Origin: an uncultured Phycisphaerales bacterium
GTDB taxonomy: Bacteria > Planctomycetota > Phycisphaerae > Tepidisphaerales > Tepidisphaeraceae
Direction of reading: 5' to 3'
Assembly: GCA_963755915.1 (NCBI GenBank)
Contig: CAVWLP010000002.1
Location: 1,440,001-1,504,000, forward strand
DNA length: 64,000 bases
Below the pieces are notes generated by a model. The model was not told the origin of the DNA and did not search any database. It was given only the letters and a program-made list of their open reading frames with translations. Position numbers and translations under genes: made by a program. Shown piece by piece: positions 9,684 to 18,144 of the stretch. The stretch's first letter is position 1; each line of letters starts with the position of its first letter.

Positions 9684-9926
9684 TTAATTCAACCGCGCGG
9701 CACGTTCATCCCGCGTCTTGTTCGCCGCCCGACTGATCTGGTCGGCGGCATTGTTTGCAAGATTCGCCGCCTCATCCGCGGCCCGGTTGGCTGCATTTGC
9801 GCGTTCATCCGCGGCCCGGTTGGCTGCTTTGGTCCGTTCATCCGCGGCCTTGTTGGCGGCGTTGGTCCGTTCGTCCGCTGCCTTGTTGGCCGCATGTTTC
9901 GCGGCCTGATCTTCTGCGGGGTTCAT
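9684..9926 (-). CDS. Small hydrophilic protein built of 11-aa repeats (LEA-like)
   Basis: AANKAADERTN-type repeats (33-bp period); GGTGA upstream of ATG. Confidence 0.6.
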   Translation of the reverse strand: MNPAEDQAAKHAANKAADERTNAANKAADERTKAANRAADERANAANRAADEAANLANNAADQISRAANKTRDERAARLN

Positions 9927-9990: not shown

Positions 9991-10341
9991 CTATCGCGCT
10001 CGCCTGAAAGCCCAAAACATTCGATCCACCGCTTCGCTGTTTTCGCGATTCAGGCGGTCTTCAGGCTGTTGGGAGAATTGCACGTCGCGGCGCCAGTCAT
10101 CGAATTCCCCTCGCCGTCCGTCCGCGCACACCACGCTGTCCAGGTGCCGCGAGCGCGTCTTATCGGTGAATATCACCAATTTCCAGCCCTCAACCAAAAA
10201 CTCAACGGTCTCATCCGTCCAATATTGGTACGGATTCTTGAGCTTCGGAACCGACCGGCCGGTTGCCACGTTACGCAGAAGCCCCAGCGCTTCATCCGAC
10301 GTCACGGTCGTCAATTTCACTTTTTGGTTTGATATCGACAT
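9991..10341 (-). CDS. Hypothetical protein
   Basis: ORF with GAAAGGA upstream of ATG 10341; translationally coupled to upstream gene. Confidence 0.55.
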   Translation of the reverse strand: MSISNQKVKLTTVTSDEALGLLRNVATGRSVPKLKNPYQYWTDETVEFLVEGWKLVIFTDKTRSRHLDSVVCADGRRGEFDDWRRDVQFSQQPEDRLNRENSEAVDRMFWAFRRAR

Positions 10342-10682
10342 CAGCGTCCTTTCCGCGTCCACCAGATGACGATGCCCGCGCCGATCGCCGCGCCGAGGAG
10401 CACCGCGGTTTTGGGATGGTCGCGCACGCTGCGCTCGAAACTCTTCTCCACCGAGCGAGCCTTGGCGCGGGTGCGGTTGAAGGAATGGCGCGCGTATTGC
10501 CCAACGTCTTCCAAACTGTTCCGCACAGCTCCGGCCGCCTGCCCGGCCGCTTCGTGCACCGCGTGAGCCGTGCTTCGAACGCTTCCGCCCACACTTTGGG
10601 CTGCAGATCGGATGCCGTCCGCGACACTGTCCACGACATCTGCCGTTTGGTGCGCGATTGTTTGATCGTCATCTGGTTTCAT
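10341..10682 (-). CDS. ElaB/YqjD/DUF883-like tail-anchored stress protein
   Basis: Ala-rich helix ending VRDHPKTAVLLGAAIGAGIVIWW. Confidence 0.65.
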   Translation of the reverse strand: MKPDDDQTIAHQTADVVDSVADGIRSAAQSVGGSVRSTAHAVHEAAGQAAGAVRNSLEDVGQYARHSFNRTRAKARSVEKSFERSVRDHPKTAVLLGAAIGAGIVIWWTRKGR

Positions 10683-10862: not shown

Positions 10863-11081
10863 TTAGGCGTTTTTCGCACCCGCGCCGAATACGACCATGA
10901 GCAGCCCGACCAGTCCGGCCGCGCCGCCGCCGAAGATGTACCACGCCGTCGCCTGGGTAAATTTCCCGGTGAACGTATTGCTGATCTGGTCCGCCGCCGA
11001 GTGGGACGCGTTCATCCCGACGATCAGCAAGGCGATTCCCGCCACCAGCAGGACGATTCCGAAAACACGTTGCATACTCAT
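10863..11081 (-). CDS. DUF3185 family small membrane protein
   Basis: GIVLLVAGIALLIVG..SHSAADQISNTFTG..TAWYIFGG pattern; GGAGG RBS. Confidence 0.8.
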   Translation of the reverse strand: MSMQRVFGIVLLVAGIALLIVGMNASHSAADQISNTFTGKFTQATAWYIFGGGAAGLVGLLMVVFGAGAKNA

Positions 11082-11438: not shown

Positions 11439-11642
11439 TCAGTGGGCGACCGATGGCGCCGTGCTGTGCATTCGCTGCCATACTTCCCAGCGGTTGATGT
11501 GAATGCCGGCAGTTGCCTCAAAGCCCAGGCGCACCGTTGTCTTCTTAATCTCAATCACGGTGACTTTGAGCGCCGACTCAATGGGGCCGATGGGATCTCC
11601 CACGACGACCGATTCGCTGTTCCTTCTCGATAGAACCAACAT
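11439..11642 (-). CDS. csrA: Carbon storage regulator CsrA/RsmA-family RNA-binding protein
   Basis: MLVLSRR.SESVVVGD..VTVIEI..VRLGFEA..INRWEV; AAGGAG RBS. Confidence 0.85.
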   Translation of the reverse strand: MLVLSRRNSESVVVGDPIGPIESALKVTVIEIKKTTVRLGFEATAGIHINRWEVWQRMHSTAPSVAH

Positions 11643-11737
11643 GACGATACTCCTTTTCTTCGGCCGATCGCTCGGCTTAACGGAAGATGGCTCGAAGCGT
11701 CAGCAACGTCGCGGTAAGAAGCCCGGCCGGCCGGCCG

Positions 11738-11960
11738 CTACGACGGGCTGTCTTGCGCGGACACAAAATAAACCCGGTGCTGCGCGCCTTGCACGAGCGT
11801 GTCCGAGACAACGCGGCCGTTGATTGTGACCGTGTTGGTCTTCGGATCCACGGTAACCGCTTCATTCGCTCGCAGCGGACCGGAATAATCGATGCGATCG
11901 TTTGTCACGTCATACACCCAGATCCTGCCATACGTCGGCGCGGCTCCTTGATAAATGAAA
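11738..11960 (-). CDS. Hypothetical small beta-rich protein (start unclear)
   Basis: Protein-like open frame between leader copy A and csrA; no clear in-frame ATG after the terminator. Confidence 0.35.
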
Positions 11961-11991
11961 CACTCAGTCCGTTGTTCAAAACGATGCTCTG

Positions 11992-12110
11992 AAAAACAAA
12001 AAAACCGACGCAATCCGAATCCCGGAGTTTCGGGATCCAATTGCGTCGGCTTACTTGTTAACGGGTCTTCCAGCTTTTGGCAGGAATACCCTTCATTGAG
12101 TCATCCGAAG
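11992..12110 (-). ncRNA. Putative cis-regulatory attenuator RNA, copy A
   Basis: UCGGAUGACU..variable hairpin..AGUAAGCCGACGCAAU..AUCCCG/CGGGAU..AUUGCGUCGG-U-tract; homologous to 12742 and 14482 copies. Confidence 0.75.
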
Positions 12111-12225
12111 ATATCGCGCTCCGAAGTGAGGCGACGTTTTTTAGGAATCACTAACAAAATCATCATACGCCTGCAAAATCGCATAGCAAGAAGATTCCCG
12201 TTTATTCGCTATACTATTCTTCTAA

Positions 12226-12603
12226 ATGCAGACTCAAGGCGAAATTGAGAGCGCTATTTCCAGGGGCATGGTGCAGTTCGAGCAGGAATACCTGGGCCGC
12301 GGCCCCAAAGACGTTCGCGTTCACTTGATCGATGAGCTGGTAGTCGTGCGGCTCAAGGGGGTTCTGACCGCCGCCGAGCAGCACCTGGTCAAGACCCTGC
12401 CCGCCGAAAAGGGCCGCGATTTGCTCAAGCAAGTGCGCACCCACCTCATTGAAACCGCCCGGCCGATGATGGAGGCCATGGTGCAGGAAATCACCGGCGT
12501 CAAGGTACTAAGCCTCCATCACGACATCAGCACAGTGACCGGAGAAGAGGTTGTACTCTTCACGCTTGCCGAATCACCTCTGTTCCGCGATAAAAAAAAA
12601 TAG
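12226..12603 (+). CDS. DUF2294 / MpsC-family protein
   Basis: FEQEYLGRGP..V..LKGVLTAAEQHL..GRDLLKQVR..GVKVLSLHHDISTVTGEEVVLFTL. Confidence 0.9.
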   Translation: MQTQGEIESAISRGMVQFEQEYLGRGPKDVRVHLIDELVVVRLKGVLTAAEQHLVKTLPAEKGRDLLKQVRTHLIETARPMMEAMVQEITGVKVLSLHHDISTVTGEEVVLFTLAESPLFRDKKK

Positions 12604-12741
12604 ATTCGTCGCGGATGGATCAGATGCGCGATTCAGAGCGAAATCCAAACATTTGTTCATTGCAATTACCAGGCCAGCGTCCTACGCTGTAGAGCGATGT
12701 AGGAGTAAATGCCCCCTCCATCATGCAGTGAATACAATTCC

Positions 12742-12850
12742 TCGGATGACTAAATAGCTGGCACCCCGCTCTCCCGGGGGGCCGGTTGCAGAGTATGCCG
12801 ACGTGATTGAATCCCGTATCTCGGGATTGGATTACGTCGGTTTTTTTCTT
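12742..12850 (+). ncRNA. Putative cis-regulatory attenuator RNA, copy B
   Basis: TCGGATGACT 12742-51; AGTATGCCGA 12792-801; terminator CCGACGTGAT..ATTACGTCGG plus T-tract. Confidence 0.75.
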
Positions 12851-12887
12851 TGTGTAGTCGGATTCCGAATAGCCGAGAAAGGGCGAC

Positions 12888-13190
12888 ATGCTAAGCACAG
12901 ATGAACTAGCCAACGGCAAAACCTTCGTCCTGAAATTGAAGGACGCAAGCGGAACGTCGTTCCAATGGGTCCAGGTTCTGCGCGGCGCCATCGCCCGGCG
13001 ATGGTACGACATTTACCGGGCCTCCGATTGGGTTGCCTTAAGGCTCGAAGCCGCCGCCGTCTTTCTCAAACCTGTAACCGAGGCCCAGGCCGATCGAAAC
13101 TGCAAGACCGGCCAGTGCATCGTGATCAAAACCGAAGCCGTAAAGGAAAACGAATTGGTGCGCCCACCTGAAAATCTGAAAACGCAATAA
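12888..13190 (+). CDS. Hypothetical protein
   Basis: 100-aa ORF with GAAAGGG upstream, directly after leader copy B. Confidence 0.55.
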   Translation: MLSTDELANGKTFVLKLKDASGTSFQWVQVLRGAIARRWYDIYRASDWVALRLEAAAVFLKPVTEAQADRNCKTGQCIVIKTEAVKENELVRPPENLKTQ

Positions 13191-13234
13191 GTTTCGCAGA
13201 TCTTCCGGTTGTTCAGCCACCAGAAAGTAAAAGG

Positions 13235-13648
13235 ATGGACCATTCCACTGATCGATCGATGGCAGAGCAAATCGCCGAGGCGGCGACCGCCTTCCAGCAG
13301 GAACGGACCGGCCACCCCCCCAAATCCGTCAGCGTCGTCCTCAGTGGAGACACCCTCGTTGTCACGCTGCACGGCGCACTTTCCCCCGCTGAGCAGGCAC
13401 TGGCACTCAGCTCCGAAGGCGCGGCCAAGGTGCGCGAGTTTCACCAACAGTTGTTTCTGAATGCTTCCGACACCCTCCGCCAGGAGATCACCCGCATTAC
13501 CGGAATGGATGTGCGCGAGGCCACCGCAGAAGTGGAGCCCACGTCCGGATCCGTCGTCCACGTCTTCACCAGCGGCACGATGGTGCAGGTGTTTCAGCTC
13601 GCCGGCAATGTGCCGACTGGAAGTTTCAACACCACAACCAAGACATGA
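13235..13648 (+). CDS. DUF2294 / MpsC-family protein (divergent paralog)
   Basis: FQQERTGHPPKSVSVVL..LVVTLHGALSPAEQAL..VREFHQQLF..ITGMDV. Confidence 0.8.
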   Translation: MDHSTDRSMAEQIAEAATAFQQERTGHPPKSVSVVLSGDTLVVTLHGALSPAEQALALSSEGAAKVREFHQQLFLNASDTLRQEITRITGMDVREATAEVEPTSGSVVHVFTSGTMVQVFQLAGNVPTGSFNTTTKT

Positions 13649-13682
13649 AAAGCATCACCTCACTTTCGTCACGGAGACAGCG

Positions 13683-13877
13683 ATGATTCGATTCCTTGGC
13701 AGTCTCGTTGTGCTCTTCGCGATCGTCGCCGGCATCGGATATTACCGCGGCTGGTTCCATTCGGAATCAATAGGTACTCCTGGCCACGATGCCGTCACCG
13801 TCACAGTGGACAAAGACAAGATCAGCCAGGACAAGGCCAGCGCGGAGCAACAGGTTCAGGATCTGACGCACAAATAA
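13683..13877 (+). CDS. Small membrane-anchored hypothetical protein
   Basis: GGAGA RBS; TM helix then GYYRGWF..TVDKDKI. Confidence 0.65.
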   Translation: MIRFLGSLVVLFAIVAGIGYYRGWFHSESIGTPGHDAVTVTVDKDKISQDKASAEQQVQDLTHK

Positions 13878-13915
13878 TCAAAAGCATTTCGGTCGTGTGC
13901 TTTTCGTCGGAGATA

Positions 13916-14194
13916 ATGATCAACATGGTTGAAACGATTCGCGACACAGGACTGCATTTCACCGAATTCGGTTATGCGCTGATAGCGCTAAGCGAGGAGA
14001 CCGCAACAGCGATTGAAATATCCATGAAGCAGCAGGGGTTCGACTGCGAAGCCTTTGAACGGGAAGGTGCGATTACCCGCGCTAATGACGCCGTTCCCAA
14101 ACAGTGGTGCGTACGCTTTTCAAAAGCGACCGATTTGCAATCCGCCCAGGACGCCATCGATTGCTGGAACAGATCACTTACCCCCGGCGCGTAG
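13916..14194 (+). CDS. Hypothetical protein
   Basis: GGAGA upstream of ATG; ~92 aa. Confidence 0.45.
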   Translation: MINMVETIRDTGLHFTEFGYALIALSEETATAIEISMKQQGFDCEAFEREGAITRANDAVPKQWCVRFSKATDLQSAQDAIDCWNRSLTPGA

Positions 14195-14217
14195 GTCCAC
14201 AAATCCCGGCCCCATAT

Positions 14218-14442
14218 TCAGACACGCCCCGTTTGAACCATTCCCGCCGGCACACTGCCATTCGACAATTCGTCGACCTTCGCCTTCGCATCCGATATGG
14301 AGTCTGCGAACCCGTAACTTCGATCCATGCCGGATTCCCTTCGCGTGATATACCACCGGGAATCCGCGGCATTCGGCTGGTGAAGCTGGGTCAAAACAAA
14401 ACCTCGATATGATGTCCGCTTGATAATGTCTTCGATTTCCAT
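14218..14442 (-). CDS. Hypothetical protein
   Basis: GAAAGG RBS; first gene after leader copy C. Confidence 0.5.
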   Translation of the reverse strand: MEIEDIIKRTSYRGFVLTQLHQPNAADSRWYITRRESGMDRSYGFADSISDAKAKVDELSNGSVPAGMVQTGRV

Positions 14443-14481
14443 GTGACCTTTCCTTCATCCGATCACGGACGACGCTCGAAT

Positions 14482-14595
14482 AAAAAAAAGCCGACGCGAC
14501 CAAATCCCGAGGCGTCGGGATTCAATTGCGTCGGCTTACTCGCTGACGGGTCCTCCGGCTGTTCGCCGAATTACCCGTCATTTAGTCATCCGAAG
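14482..14595 (-). ncRNA. Putative cis-regulatory attenuator RNA, copy C
   Basis: UCGGAUGACU..UGACGGGU/ACCCGUCA..AGUAAGCCGACGC..GCGUCGGC-U8; GATAAT -10-like box just upstream. Confidence 0.75.
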
Positions 14596-15125
14596 ACTTC
14601 AATATTATCCTGCAAGAGCGGAACTCTTGCCGCTTTAACAACAAATCACCCTACGTTTATCAGCCCGTTAATCAAGACAATTCCCGCAATAATTGACCTT
14701 GGACCGTTTGGGGTGGTTTTTTCAGGGCTGGATTGCCATCTTCAGATTCCCCATTGCTGAAATCGGTTGCCGTCAGGGTAGCGGCGCGAAATCTGCTTGG
14801 CTCACAATCGCAGCTCACGCAAAATGTCAATTGGCCAATATCTATGCGTCAGAAACCGATCGATCACCAATTGCTCTGTGCGGTTACCTCCCCAAATCTG
14901 GCACTGCATTTTTCCCCTTCAGTCTACTAAATTTGCTCCCTCCTAAGGATCGACCCGCGACCAACTTAAGCCTGCCAGTCCTCGATCAACGCTCATAGCT
15001 TTGGGAGTGCACACATGCTCATTCAAAGCAGGCGACCGTGCCGAAATCGTCTCCTCGGAGCACCTGAAGAAACACCAGTAGCCGAATAGCCGTATTTTTT
15101 CGAACGTGCGAAGGGATACCGCATC

Positions 15126-15481: not shown

Positions 15482-16372
15482 TCACGCCGTCTGGCCGGCG
15501 GATACCCCCACATCAGAAGACAACGGCGGCTCTGTCACGGTGTCTTCCGGGGGGGAGCACCCTTCATCGCCGGCGGTACTCCGCCGTCCTTTTGGATTTG
15601 TCTTTTCCGGTGTCCCGGATTGGCCTGCCGTGAGCGAAGTCGAATGGCCCCCATGCCGAAGGCGGTAGCTCTTGCCGGTGATGTTGATGATCGTGGCGTG
15701 CTGCAGGAACCGATCCAGAATGGCCGTGGCCGCCGGCACGTCGCCGATCAGCTTGGCCCAGTCCTCCAGTGGACGGTTGCTGGTCATCATCGTCGAGCGG
15801 TTCTCGTGCCGGCGCATGACGATCTCCAGCAGGCATTCGCCGCTGCGCCGCGGAAGCTGCTTCATTCCCATGTCGTCGATGATAAGCAGATCAGGCTTGA
15901 GATACCGGGCCAGCGTCTTGTCCTGGGCTCCCAGATCCTCGTCGCCTAAAAAGTCGCGGGCCAGGTCGAAGATGGATCGGTACAGGACCACCAAGCCGCT
16001 CTTGATCGCCTGGTGTCCGATGGCCTGGGCCAAAAACGATTTGCCCACGCCGGGCGGACCCAGCAAGAGCACGTCACGTTTGTCACGAATGAACTGGCCG
16101 GCGGCCAGATCGTGAATCTGTTTGCGTTTGATGGAGGTGTTGAAGGAGAAGTCGAACTCGTCGAGGTTTTTGGTGTCGCGGAACATCGCCGCCTTGACGC
16201 GCCGGCCGATCTGCCGGCTGGATCGGACGTTCAGTTCATCCTGAAGGATCAGTTCCAAAAACTCACTGTGGTCGAGCCGATTGCCGGCCGCCTCGCTCAG
16301 GCGAACTTCAAGGCTGCTCGCCAGACCTGAAAGCCGAAGTTGCTTGAGCGTCTGCATCAACGAAGGTCTCAT
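15482..16372 (-). CDS. istB: IS21 helper ATPase IstB
   Basis: LDEFDFSFN, GPPGVGKS, LLIIDDMG and AILDRFL motifs. Confidence 0.95.
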   Translation of the reverse strand: MRPSLMQTLKQLRLSGLASSLEVRLSEAAGNRLDHSEFLELILQDELNVRSSRQIGRRVKAAMFRDTKNLDEFDFSFNTSIKRKQIHDLAAGQFIRDKRDVLLLGPPGVGKSFLAQAIGHQAIKSGLVVLYRSIFDLARDFLGDEDLGAQDKTLARYLKPDLLIIDDMGMKQLPRRSGECLLEIVMRRHENRSTMMTSNRPLEDWAKLIGDVPAATAILDRFLQHATIINITGKSYRLRHGGHSTSLTAGQSGTPEKTNPKGRRSTAGDEGCSPPEDTVTEPPLSSDVGVSAGQTA

Positions 16373-18144
16373 GGGGTGGACTCCCTTCGGCTCTGCTCAG
16401 GGCAGGCCTGTAAAGGTTGTGCGGCAGGCAAAGCCTCCGCTTGGGTGATTGCGTCGCGTACGAACTGTCCGTAATCGGCCAGTCCGCGGATGATTGGATG
16501 TTCCTGAACAAACTCGAAGTGTTGTTGAACCGGTGCGCCGTTTTGGTGTTCGATGAGCTGCCGCAGGGAGGCGCAGGTGATACGCGCCATGCCCCAGAGC
16601 AATCTCGCAGGCTCGTTCCACGGCCGGTCGCGGCTGCTGATTGGCCAGCGACAGCAGCCCCATCAACACGCGCACGCCTTCGATGCCGCGATGCTGAAGC
16701 ATTGACTGCGCCCACTGCGTGGCGTGCGGCCCGATGCATTCGATCCGCTGGAGAAGCCAGGTCGTTCCACGCTCGATGCCGCTGATCTTCTCCGGCAGGA
16801 TATGGGCGTCTTGCGTCGAGAACCTGCCCGGCGGACGCTGCGCGTGCAGAGCGATCGCACGCATCTTCTGATCGAACAGCCGGACCGTGCGCCGTCCCAC
16901 CGCGCCCAGACCCGCTGGCCCAAAAACTCCGGCGGGACCGAATAGTACGCCCCCTTGATCTCCACGTGCCCGTCGCGGTGAACACTGCGCAACGCCTCGG
17001 TGAAAAGATCGAATCGCACCGGCGGCAGAGCCAACAGTGCCGGCTTCTCTACCTGCTCGAAGACTTCCTTCACCTGCCGCCGCGTCGTGCCGTGGATGCG
17101 CGTGTCGGCCACGCTCTTCTCCCACGTCAGCAGATGCGCGTTCTGATCCGAGAGCGAGGCGAATTGCCGGCCTTTGAGAGCATTGCTCTTCACATAGCCG
17201 ATGCCCCGCTCGATCTTCCCCTTGTGCCGCGGCGTGTACGGCTTGGTGGGCAGAATGGCGATTCCATAATGTTCGGCGAACGACCGGACCTTGGGACACA
17301 ACTCCGCCTCGAACCAGTCCGCCCGCGTCACCGCCGCGCGAAGATTGTCGATCACCAGCGCCGACGGCATCCCGCCGAAGTGCGTAAAGGCATTTTCCAG
17401 ACAACGCAGAAAATCATCGGTCGTCTGCCGCTCCACCGCCTCGGCGTACCCCTTGCGGCTGTGGCTCAGCACAATGCGGAAGACCCAGGTTGCTTTGCGT
17501 TTGCCGTCAGGACCGACCAGGGCGCACCCCGGCCGAAGTCCACCTGCGCCTCGGCTCCCGGCTCGCATTCCATCCGGCGAAAGGGCGCCGGCGCGGCAGC
17601 CGAGAGCTTCTTGATGAACCGGCGCACGCTGTAATAGCTGCCGGCATAGCCGTGATCGCTGGAGATGTCTTGATAAATCCGCTGGGCCGTCAGCCCGGCT
17701 TCCAACTTCTGAACAATGACCTCACGCCAGGGCGATGCCGTACTGACCGACCCGATGGTGCGCCGGATAACCCGGTGGCGCGCTTTCCGAGCCGCCTGCG
17801 GCGAGCACCGTCGAGCCGCCTGCGGCGAGCACCGTCGAGCCGCCTGCGGCGAGCACCGTCGAGCCGCCTGCGGCGAGCACCGTCGAGCCGCCTGCGGCGA
17901 GCACCGTCGAGCCGCCTGCGGCGAGCACCGTCGAGCCGCCTGCGGCGAGCACCGTCGAGCCGAGGGGCGCGCTGGCCGGTTTTGAATCCGATCCGGCGCC
18001 GCAGGATCGCCGCCCGACAACCGGATGTGGCGTCCAACGGTCTCCCGGTGAACGCCGAGTTGGCGGGCGATGTTCCGATTGGACCAGCCGCTGCGCAAGT
18101 GCCAAAATTGCTTGTACTTCCGCCATCTTGAGTTGATTGGCCAT
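16369..18144 (-). CDS. istA: IS21 transposase IstA (several apparent frameshifts)
   Basis: HTH, EAQVDFG, IDNLRAAV, HKGKIERGIGY and RIHGTT motifs across frames; ATGA overlap with istB. Confidence 0.9.
17788..17955. repeat. Perfect tandem repeat, 7 x 24 bp, inside istA
   Basis: Unit CGAGCCGCCTGCGGCGAGCACCGT with no spacers. Confidence 0.95.

Follow-up and report, generated by a model that had tools for sequence, protein, structure and literature searches.

A leader RNA family of Planctomycetota that very likely acts as a transcription attenuator and accompanies MpsC/DUF2294 genes

We analyzed a stretch of 64,000 nucleotides (nt; henceforth the window) from the genome of an uncultured Phycisphaerales bacterium (Planctomycetota; contig CAVWLP010000002.1, positions 1,440,001 to 1,504,000) and focused on a leader RNA present there in three copies, termed w1, w2, and w3. 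The leader is very likely a transcription attenuator, in which a conserved rod built on the helix P1 competes with the foot of a terminator for the same nucleotides. Genes encoding proteins of the MpsC/DUF2294 family accompany the leader, and we tentatively propose that one type of these proteins (type A) holds the rod shut. To our knowledge, gene regulation in Planctomycetota is poorly understood, and we know of no general stress regulator established in this phylum.

Two mutually exclusive folds of the leader

The three copies occupy positions 11992-12108 on the minus strand (w1), 12742-12847 on the plus strand (w2), and 14482-14593 on the minus strand (w3). On its own strand, each copy presents UCGGAUGACU, a variable hairpin (P2), AGUAWGCCGACG, a long GC hairpin with CGUCGG as its 3' arm, and seven to eight U in this order, and the mean column identity of their alignment is 75%. 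The existence of the three copies and the order of the elements had been described in an earlier reading of the window made without database searches (the sequence-only reading), and both descriptions hold.

At full length, the minimum free energy (MFE) folds of w1, w2, and w3 comprised P2 and the long GC hairpin followed by the U-tract, with -54.8, -56.2, and -64.0 kcal/mol (z = -5.9, -5.7, and -7.9), respectively, and none of 200 shuffled sequences folded as well. Without the 3' arm of the terminator, the MFE fold of all three copies was a rod comprising UCGG:CCGA (P1a), a 3x3 internal loop, ACU:AGU (P1b), and P2, as predicted in the sequence-only reading, in which the 5' sequence pairs with AGUAWGCCGA around a 3x3 loop. 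CCGA of P1a sits within the terminator foot GCCGACG, and removal of the 3' arm flips the MFE structure from the terminator to the rod. The rod and the terminator are thus mutually exclusive because CCGA is needed by both, and the earlier claim to this effect is borne out.

The core of w1 (12046-12108, minus strand) consists of P1a (UCGG/CCGA), the 3x3 loop (AUG/AAG), P1b (ACU/AGU), and the P2 hairpin, and its predicted terminator (11992-12050, minus strand) of a hairpin at 12005-12050, which has GCCGA in common with P1, and a U-tract at 11992-12004. The core of w2 (12742-12801, plus strand) is a type-2 variant with the loop AUG/AUG and a GC-rich P2, followed by a predicted terminator at 12797-12847 on the same strand (hairpin, 12797-12840; U-tract, 12841-12847). 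The P1-P2 core of w3 is found at 14531-14593 (minus strand; fold z of -5.55), and its predicted terminator at 14482-14535 (minus strand; hairpin, 14490-14535; U-tract, 14482-14489). Against the covariance model (CM) described below, the cores of w1, w2, and w3 scored 91.5, 77.9, and 95.5 bits, respectively, the last being the top score in the genome, and the MFE fold of each core without the 3' arm was the rod described above. A GC-rich hairpin immediately followed by a U-tract, the criterion for a putative intrinsic terminator, is present in all three copies. The intergenic regions that hold w1 and w3 are divergent, so neither copy can serve as the terminator of an upstream gene.

Distribution and conservation of the leader

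A strict pattern matched nine times in the genome and not at all when reversed, and allowing one mismatch yielded a tenth copy. We then used a CM (R1) built on the leader core from copies with invariant P1. The ten copies scored 71-95.5 bits with R1, and a weak, diverged eleventh copy was found at position 1359595 of contig 3 (46.6 bits). This eleventh copy is divergent from a third type-A MpsC gene (contig 3, 1358923-1359671). On the reverse strand, R1 gave 27-38 bits versus 71-96 bits on the matching strand.

Among 61 genomes (this one and its relatives; here and below, the genome counts for the leader, MpsC, and CsrA include the unpublished genome G014), the leader was matched in 24, namely all 12 relatives in the genus, 19 of the 36 genomes of the family, and single genomes of four other families in the class. 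A scan of one genome per species with the exact pattern returned at least 119 stretches. Among the matches listed, nearly all were labelled as metagenome-assembled genomes (MAGs) of Planctomycetota, from both Planctomycetia and Phycisphaerae, and three were oddly labelled (Aggregatilineales, 'delta proteobacterium', and Kuenenia). The contig labelled as Aggregatilineales (Chloroflexota; L047) carries, at 432-974 on the plus strand, a type-A-like MpsC gene and, directly after it, a leader with an insertion of ~40 nt in P2; either the regulator and its leader were transferred together beyond the phylum, or the contig was misbinned. When the phylum was sampled evenly, the leader was detected in three of 150 genomes under strict filters, which is a lower bound because these filters scored just 31 candidates per genome. 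The leader family is widespread yet patchy.

CM matches from 111 sources were pooled into 152 distinct copies. In 147 of them, a hairpin starting from (R)CCG of the 3' strand of P1 is followed by at least five T within 8 nt, and the stem covaries (e.g., GAUG/CAUC, GGCG/CGCC, and GUCGCC/GGCGAC), changes in the terminator foot being matched on the other arm. The P2 hairpin showed double changes at 13 of its 15 pairs. Its covariation, calculated from an alignment that was fitted to the model and holds a few reverse-strand echoes, was 0.261 versus 0.142 in shuffled alignments (none of 500 reached 0.261) and at most 0.084 with slid partners. P2 carries an A or AG bulge, and P2b and the loop take insertions of up to ~40 nt. 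The sequence-only reading had claimed, from the three window copies, that the middle hairpin keeps its pairing, that the terminator stem covaries, and that selection acts on the RNA structure of a terminator/antiterminator leader, be it a riboswitch or protein-bound. All three claims are upheld by the relatives, in which the stems covary, together with the thermodynamic reality of both folds.

P1 was nearly invariant, in both strands and the loop, across 150 distinct copies. Its successive pairs were UA in 138 copies (UG in six), CG in 149, GC in 149, GC in 149, AU in 148 (GU in one), CG in 149, and UA in 146 (AU in one). In the internal loop, the first position was A.G in 143 copies and the last G.A in 148 (A.G in one), while the middle pair was U.A in 116, A.A in 13, C.A in 12, C.G in four, U.U in two, and A.U in one. 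Because P1 is nearly invariant, its pairing rests on complementarity, the MFE folds, and three compensatory changes in P1b (AU>GC, UA>AU, and UA>GC). The invariance of both strands and the loop fits sequence-specific recognition.

Contigs from RNA libraries of four soil, litter, and rhizosphere studies (X5, X6, X8, and X9) span parts of the leader and the downstream genes of close relatives; such contigs show neither ends, strand, nor level and are thus silent on termination, and the parts they leave uncovered are meaningless.

No match to Rfam 15 was found over the whole window at the gathering threshold, in agreement with the sequence-only reading, in which the leader was not recognized as a known class. 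At E <= 10, positions 11900-14700 gave four rows at chance level, the best of which (ncr1175; 25 bits versus a threshold of 60) covered the terminator hairpin only. Literature searches on planctomycete RNA motifs, riboswitches, antiterminators, and DUF2294/YbcI yielded no description of the leader among the titles and abstract openings listed. Altogether, the leader represents an RNA family absent from Rfam and the literature searched, with a mechanism of a known kind and a plausible new protein partner.

Link between the leader and MpsC/DUF2294 proteins

Two conserved types of MpsC paralogs, A and B, accompany the leaders (Pfam MpsC, PF10057; 130.1 and 80.2 bits, respectively, against a cut-off of 23). 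In the window, the type-A gene (12226-12603, plus strand; Pfam E-value of 4.6e-38) is divergent from w1 and upstream of w2 and has no leader in front, and the type-B gene (starting at 13235 or 13259 and ending at 13648, plus strand; 1.5e-22) lies behind w2. The same arrangement recurs at the loci scanned with the CM. A leader was found within 400 nt of 33 of the 36 type-A genes; in 30 of the 36, a divergent leader lay within this distance, and in 13 a same-strand leader lay just downstream. No type-A gene (0 of 36) had a same-strand leader upstream. For type B, on the other hand, 25 of the 29 genes immediately followed a leader.

Of the 61 genomes, 21 possess both the leader and MpsC, 35 neither, three the leader alone, and two MpsC alone, a table that overstates the link because kin are not independent. 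Both genomes with MpsC alone carry a third type, type C, with 63-65% identity to type-C references versus 47-50% to type A, and the seven MpsC-only genomes in the phylum sample likewise carry type C. R1, a narrow model, detected no leader near type-C genes with the CM filters off. G023, which lacks MpsC and is 95% complete, has two leader copies altered at otherwise invariant positions, one of them without a U-tract. In G193, a diverged leader adjoins a broken type-A gene. As a separate observation, type C (MKT[RK]GQLEAEISEAIIKFE...) occurs in leader-free planctomycete genomes (loci L166, L167-L171, L174, and L175), and adjoins a gene for a protein of ~630 amino acids (aa) in three of these loci (L168, L169, and L175).

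Fusions of REC and MpsC made up 59 of the 120 best-matching longer homologs of type A, and PAS+MpsC and histidine kinase (HK)+REC+MpsC fusions were also present. In the scanned fusions with REC or PAS, MpsC occupied the C-terminus. As a C-terminal domain after REC or PAS is normally an effector, this position is compatible with a role of MpsC as a regulator. Two of 401 phylum genomes encode an MpsC fusion, and both are leader-positive: one fusion resides in a leader-containing cluster and the other in an operon of leader, PAS kinase, and REC-MpsC (a MAG labelled as Pirellula).

The AlphaFold2 (AF2) model of type A had a predicted local distance difference test score (pLDDT) of 89.6. Foldseek returned TRAPP Bet3/TPC6, YslB, and H-NOX with a best E-value of 6e-3, from which no family can be assigned, and the top Z of 6.7 from VIA-align was rated as common by the tool. 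By sequence, the best E-value of type A against the PDB was 1, and the ESM Atlas gave no usable match. A prediction of the complex of types A and B, run without controls, scored 0.00 and yielded no verdict.

The name MpsC gives no hint of a ligand because MpsC does not function within MpsAB in S. aureus: the deletion of mpsC had no phenotype, and the authors of that study judged it not to belong functionally to mpsAB (PMC6689103). Na+ or bicarbonate, which the sequence-only reading had put forward among the candidate ligands, leans on the Pfam name, is not supported, and was rejected.

Genes downstream of the leader

Of the 138 copies with a downstream gene call in the locus, 122 have the next downstream gene on the same strand, so that the placement of the leader 5' of genes in the same orientation, seen earlier in the window, extends to the relatives. 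Leaving out duplicates and those more than 450 nt away, 116 distinct first genes remained. Their Pfam families were MpsC (23), Transgly_assoc (8), DUF5670 (6), HSP20 (4), Band_7 (3), Ice_binding (3), histidine-kinase domains (3), BON, CsbD, DUF3309, CsrA, sigma-70, DUF1328, and DUF2934 (2 each), and HSP70 and KaiC (1 each). This set, with its GlsB-like proteins and DnaK, reads as one of general stress and protection genes. The leader marks a protection regulon in mostly soil and peat lineages, with chaperones, small membrane stress proteins, BON/CsbD proteins, and ice-binding-like proteins, and, as the whole regulon is marked, it can be read from the sequence alone.

Promoters and the 5' segment

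Each window copy is preceded by a sigma70-like pair (TTGnnn and TAnnnT separated by 16 or 17 nt), of which the -10 hexamer ends ~53 nt before UCGG. By match to the consensus, the predicted promoter of w1 spans 12162-12189 on the minus strand (-35 TTGCTA, 12184-12189; -10 TATGAT, 12162-12167), that of w2 12660-12688 on the plus strand (-35 TTGCAA, 12660-12665; -10 TACGCT, 12683-12688), and that of w3 14648-14675 on the minus strand (-35 TTGATT, 14670-14675; -10 TAGGGT, 14648-14653). The relatives share the TTGnnn/TAnnnT pair, and, in 40 of the 111 copies having a -10-like hexamer, it ends 52-54 nt before UCGG. A common ECF-type promoter was also sought and none was seen, the sites being sigma70-like.

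The region between the promoter and the core may form a hairpin, P0, of which w3 has a clear version and w1 and w2 have weak ones. The P0 hairpin of w3 (14612-14630, minus strand; GCAAGAG-UUCCG-CUCUUGC) has -13.1 kcal/mol and z of -2.6, the corresponding segment of w1 between the inferred start and the core (12113-12155, minus strand) folds into a weak hairpin (-9.6 kcal/mol; z of -0.9), and the w2 hairpin (12696-12722, plus strand; GAU..GGAG/CUCC..AUC) is a weak fold with z of 0.0, P0 being clearer in the type-2 relatives than in w2 itself. Across the relatives, P0, often of the form GGAGCC...GGCUCC, is a trend and not a fixed feature (mean z of -1.3; z below -1.5 in 68 of 148 copies). The span of ~110 nt given in the sequence-only reading is right for the core and terminator and too short for the entire leader, as the promoter and P0 lie further 5'.

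A second small 5' hairpin, P1', with a CGG loop can be drawn by pairing the bases before UCGG with GAUGACU (e.g., 14584-14599 on the minus strand of the window). In register, the complementarity per pair was 0.96, 0.53, 0.79, 0.60, 0.50, and 0.70, versus mostly 0.1-0.3 (at most 0.71) when shifted. Where N14 is C, the upstream partner is G in 12 copies (with A67) or N67 is G in four copies. P1' has at least four contiguous pairs in 51 of 151 copies, is absent by contiguity in 73 of 151, and is weak in w1 and w2; the shuffle control (470 versus 467 pairs) is uninformative, as the 3' partner is invariant. Where formed, P1' would compete with P1.

Proposed mechanism and alternative explanations

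The sigma70-type promoter would give an RNA of ~160 nt, in which P0 and a linker precede the conserved rod with P1a (UCGG:CCGA), the internal loop A.G / N.N / G.A, P1b (ACU:AGU), and P2 with its bulge of A or AG. GCCGACG, on the 3' strand of the rod, doubles as the 5' foot of a strong predicted intrinsic terminator. With the foot formed, RNA polymerase would stop at the U-tract and the genes would be off; with the rod clamped, the foot would be blocked and the polymerase would read through. Termination is probably the default state, because the upper terminator stem forms anyway and the foot of seven base pairs (bp) can displace P1a of 4-6 bp, and read-through would therefore need a clamped P1. 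Our leading explanation, which we put forward tentatively, is that the leader is an attenuator of stress genes and that type-A MpsC (12226-12603), encoded beside leaders, clamps the rod by direct contact with the RNA. Together with the REC and PAS fusions, such a clamp would pass stress signals to the whole regulon via antitermination, and the type-B paralog, itself controlled by a leader, would give feedback. A broader and slightly bolder proposal, likewise tentative, is that type-A MpsC, alone or fused to REC or PAS, may be a new RNA-binding antiterminator output domain that runs, with the leader, a general stress response by antitermination instead of an alternative sigma factor, and that the module of regulator, leader, and paralog may move or be lost as a unit across Planctomycetota. 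If MpsC is the trigger, a widespread family without an assigned function would gain its first mechanistic role as a new response-regulator output; if a small molecule is the trigger, the leader would be a new riboswitch class for a stress signal. The RNA concerned is ~70 nt long and the protein 125 aa.

Besides the dependence among kin noted above, several points weigh against a direct clamp by MpsC. Three leader-positive genomes (G012, G023, and G057) have no MpsC match. The type-A structure predicted by AF2 resembles no known RNA-binding fold, and the weak hints from its fold may point instead to small-molecule sensors (V4R/Bet3-like). The invariance of P1 is in part forced by the three-way pairing constraint and in part an effect of sampling, as 80 loci were fetched with a pattern fixing the exact P1 and R1 was built on copies with invariant P1. 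The genes were called with a home-made caller, their families being taken from Pfam. Finally, the linkage is equally expected if MpsC types A and B are the core of the regulon, a DNA- or protein-binding regulator, or a maker or buffer of a ligand; MpsC acting indirectly in such a manner, on DNA, the polymerase, or a ligand, takes up the remainder and is improbable.

A strong rival, possible and on our estimate somewhat unlikely, is a riboswitch, in which the P1-P2 rod is the aptamer for a small molecule or ion raised under stress (such as an alarmone, a second messenger, or an osmolyte-linked ion), P1 is clamped by the bound ligand so that the polymerase reads through, and MpsC is a regulon member or ligand handler. 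A compact core with invariant loop and junction nucleotides, a variable covarying peripheral stem, and an overlapping terminator is what such an RNA would present, and the 1-18 CM matches per positive genome (including reverse-strand echoes) with diverse downstream genes are typical of riboswitches for signalling molecules. The weak fold hints and the three MpsC-less genomes point the same way. On the other hand, the regulon has no metabolite or transporter theme, and the P1 helices of riboswitches usually covary, whereas both strands are fixed here. A protein-free switch would also not lead us to expect the strict co-occurrence, the fixed adjacency to type A, or the REC/PAS-MpsC fusions, and the leaders of G023 look degenerate where MpsC is missing.

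Control by CsrA is quite improbable. CsrA, either the housekeeping protein or a leader-linked paralog, would bind GGA of UCGGAUGA in P1' (AGUYG-U-CGG-A-UGACU) and thereby favor the terminator, and its release under stress would permit read-through. GGAUG resembles the known SELEX-derived CsrA consensus, the 5' strand of P1 is complemented in register by the bases before UCGG, the accompanying changes at N14 and N67 agree with the pairing, and the invariant GGA in UCGGAUGA can occupy the P1' loop in about a third to half of the copies, with a second GGA common, not universal, in P0. Divergent CsrA paralogs (~38-56 bits) stand behind leaders in the window and in many relatives of the genus. However, CsrA is present in 60 of the 61 genomes irrespective of the leader, so that its co-occurrence carries no signal, and the leader-linked paralog was not seen in the leader-positive genomes G053, G054, and G056. 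The frequent absence of P1' by contiguity and its weakness in w1 and w2 speak against this explanation as well, and it leaves the invariant 3' strand and loop unexplained. Still less probable is the absence of any switch, the leader being a constitutive leaky terminator or a stable trans-acting small RNA of ~115-160 nt, with the downstream genes living on basal read-through. A discrete short RNA is expected anyway from a promoter of its own and a strong terminator, and the contigs of the four RNA libraries span leader segments of close relatives; nevertheless, without switching there would be no purpose in P1 and the terminator foot overlapping in a conserved manner, and the fixed orientation before genes and the short distances to the next start speak against this explanation as well. 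A mobile or repetitive element (MITE/REP-like) with a mere palindrome is hardly credible and already contradicted. In its favor, the genome contains several clustered copies of the leader, and w3 has an IS21-like element as a neighbor, but the strand-specific scores, the covarying stems, the promoter at a fixed distance, and a gene context kept across classes of the phylum all oppose it, and neither terminal inverted repeats nor target duplications accompany the copies. A repeat, the alternative raised in the sequence-only reading, is contradicted by the promoter that each copy has of its own, the fixed gene orientation, and the lack of terminal inverted repeats.

Comparison with known systems

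Control of a regulon through antitermination is known from the ANTAR response regulators and from BglG/LicT acting on RAT hairpins. As in the ANTAR systems (EutV, AmiR, and NasT/NasR), the leader folds into a structure that shares sequence with an intrinsic terminator, the candidate regulator exists both as a REC-plus-output protein and as a stand-alone one, and one regulator would serve several operons. Unlike the two hexaloop hairpins of ANTAR leaders, the leader described here is a single extended rod whose internal loops are conserved, and MpsC/DUF2294, a candidate RNA binder, takes the place of ANTAR as the output domain. Inspection of the alignments for tandem hairpins with hexanucleotide loops (A1 and G4 in the consensus familiar to us) revealed a single rod with a variable P2 loop, and the 25 families listed for the 116 first downstream genes do not include ANTAR, the genomes themselves not having been searched for it.

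The leader shares with the RAT elements of BglG/SacY/LicT an imperfect hairpin with conserved internal loops, whose 3' side also provides the 5' side of the terminator. In both systems, the gene for the regulator is beside its target; here, it immediately precedes a leader in 13 of 36 cases, like the arrangement glcT-RAT-ptsG. No sequence likeness to RAT was apparent by eye against the consensus familiar to us, and the regulon consists of stress genes rather than genes for sugar uptake. CAT-PRD families were likewise not among the 25 listed for the downstream genes, a list consulted without a dedicated search.

ON riboswitches such as guanidine-I, the Na+ DUF1646 motif, and Li+ nhaA-I resemble the leader in the competition of P1 with a terminator, the rod with conserved loops, and several copies per genome. 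They differ from it in that the leader has no Rfam match, no transporter or metabolic theme, an invariant P1, and a strict link to a protein family. The three-helix attenuation by PyrR offers a parallel in that a third 5' hairpin (P1') possibly competes and the operon holds a paralog of the candidate regulator; PyrR, however, promotes termination, whereas the direction of control here may be either, and P1' is a tendency. In content, the regulon is similar to the stress regulons of sigma-B and PhyR-NepR-EcfG as they are generally known, with CsbD, GlsB/YmgE-type, Hsp20, BON/OsmY-type, and small membrane proteins, whereas the shared element here is an RNA leader with a terminator instead of a promoter motif, and the promoters are sigma70-like.

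Genes around the leader copies in the window

Behind w1 on the minus strand, six genes between 9684 and 11917 appear to constitute one operon. They are an unknown small open reading frame (ORF; 11738-11917, gene caller), a divergent CsrA paralog (11439-11642; Pfam E-value of 1.1e-13), a DUF3185 gene (10863-11075; 3.6e-20), an unknown gene (10341-10682, gene caller), a DUF7693 gene (9991-10362; 6.1e-12), and a gene for a repeat-rich small protein (9684-9926, gene caller). The CsrA paralog scored 51 bits in Pfam versus ~90 bits for housekeeping copies, and paralogs in the range of ~38-56 bits are found behind leaders in G020 as well as in the genus relatives mentioned above. The contigs of the four RNA-library studies all span the small ORF behind w1 (window positions 11700-11943); as all of them depart from the window at 11943, the relatives differ just upstream of this ORF.

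Behind w2 on the plus strand, the type-B MpsC gene is preceded by an unknown gene (12888-13190) and followed by a gene for a small membrane protein (13683-13877) and another unknown gene (13916-14194), all three from the gene caller. Behind w3, there is an ORF of 74 aa (14218-14442, minus strand) without a Pfam family. What looks like an IS21-type pair adjoins w3 at 15482-17705 on the minus strand. Judged by eye from the translations, its members are a P-loop protein resembling IstB (15482-16357) and a transposase divided between two ORFs (16663-17472 and 17466-17705). The ORF at 17722-17952 (minus strand) consists of six tandem VLAAGGST repeats.

Outside the window, a relaxed motif scan met by chance a sequence of 150 nt or more that recurs in nine identical copies in the same genome (G000), at 303323, 684835, 2195699, 2524849, 2892692, and 4755358 of contig 2 and at 760576, 806092, and 894808 of contig 3, and that probably corresponds to the end of an insertion sequence present in several copies.

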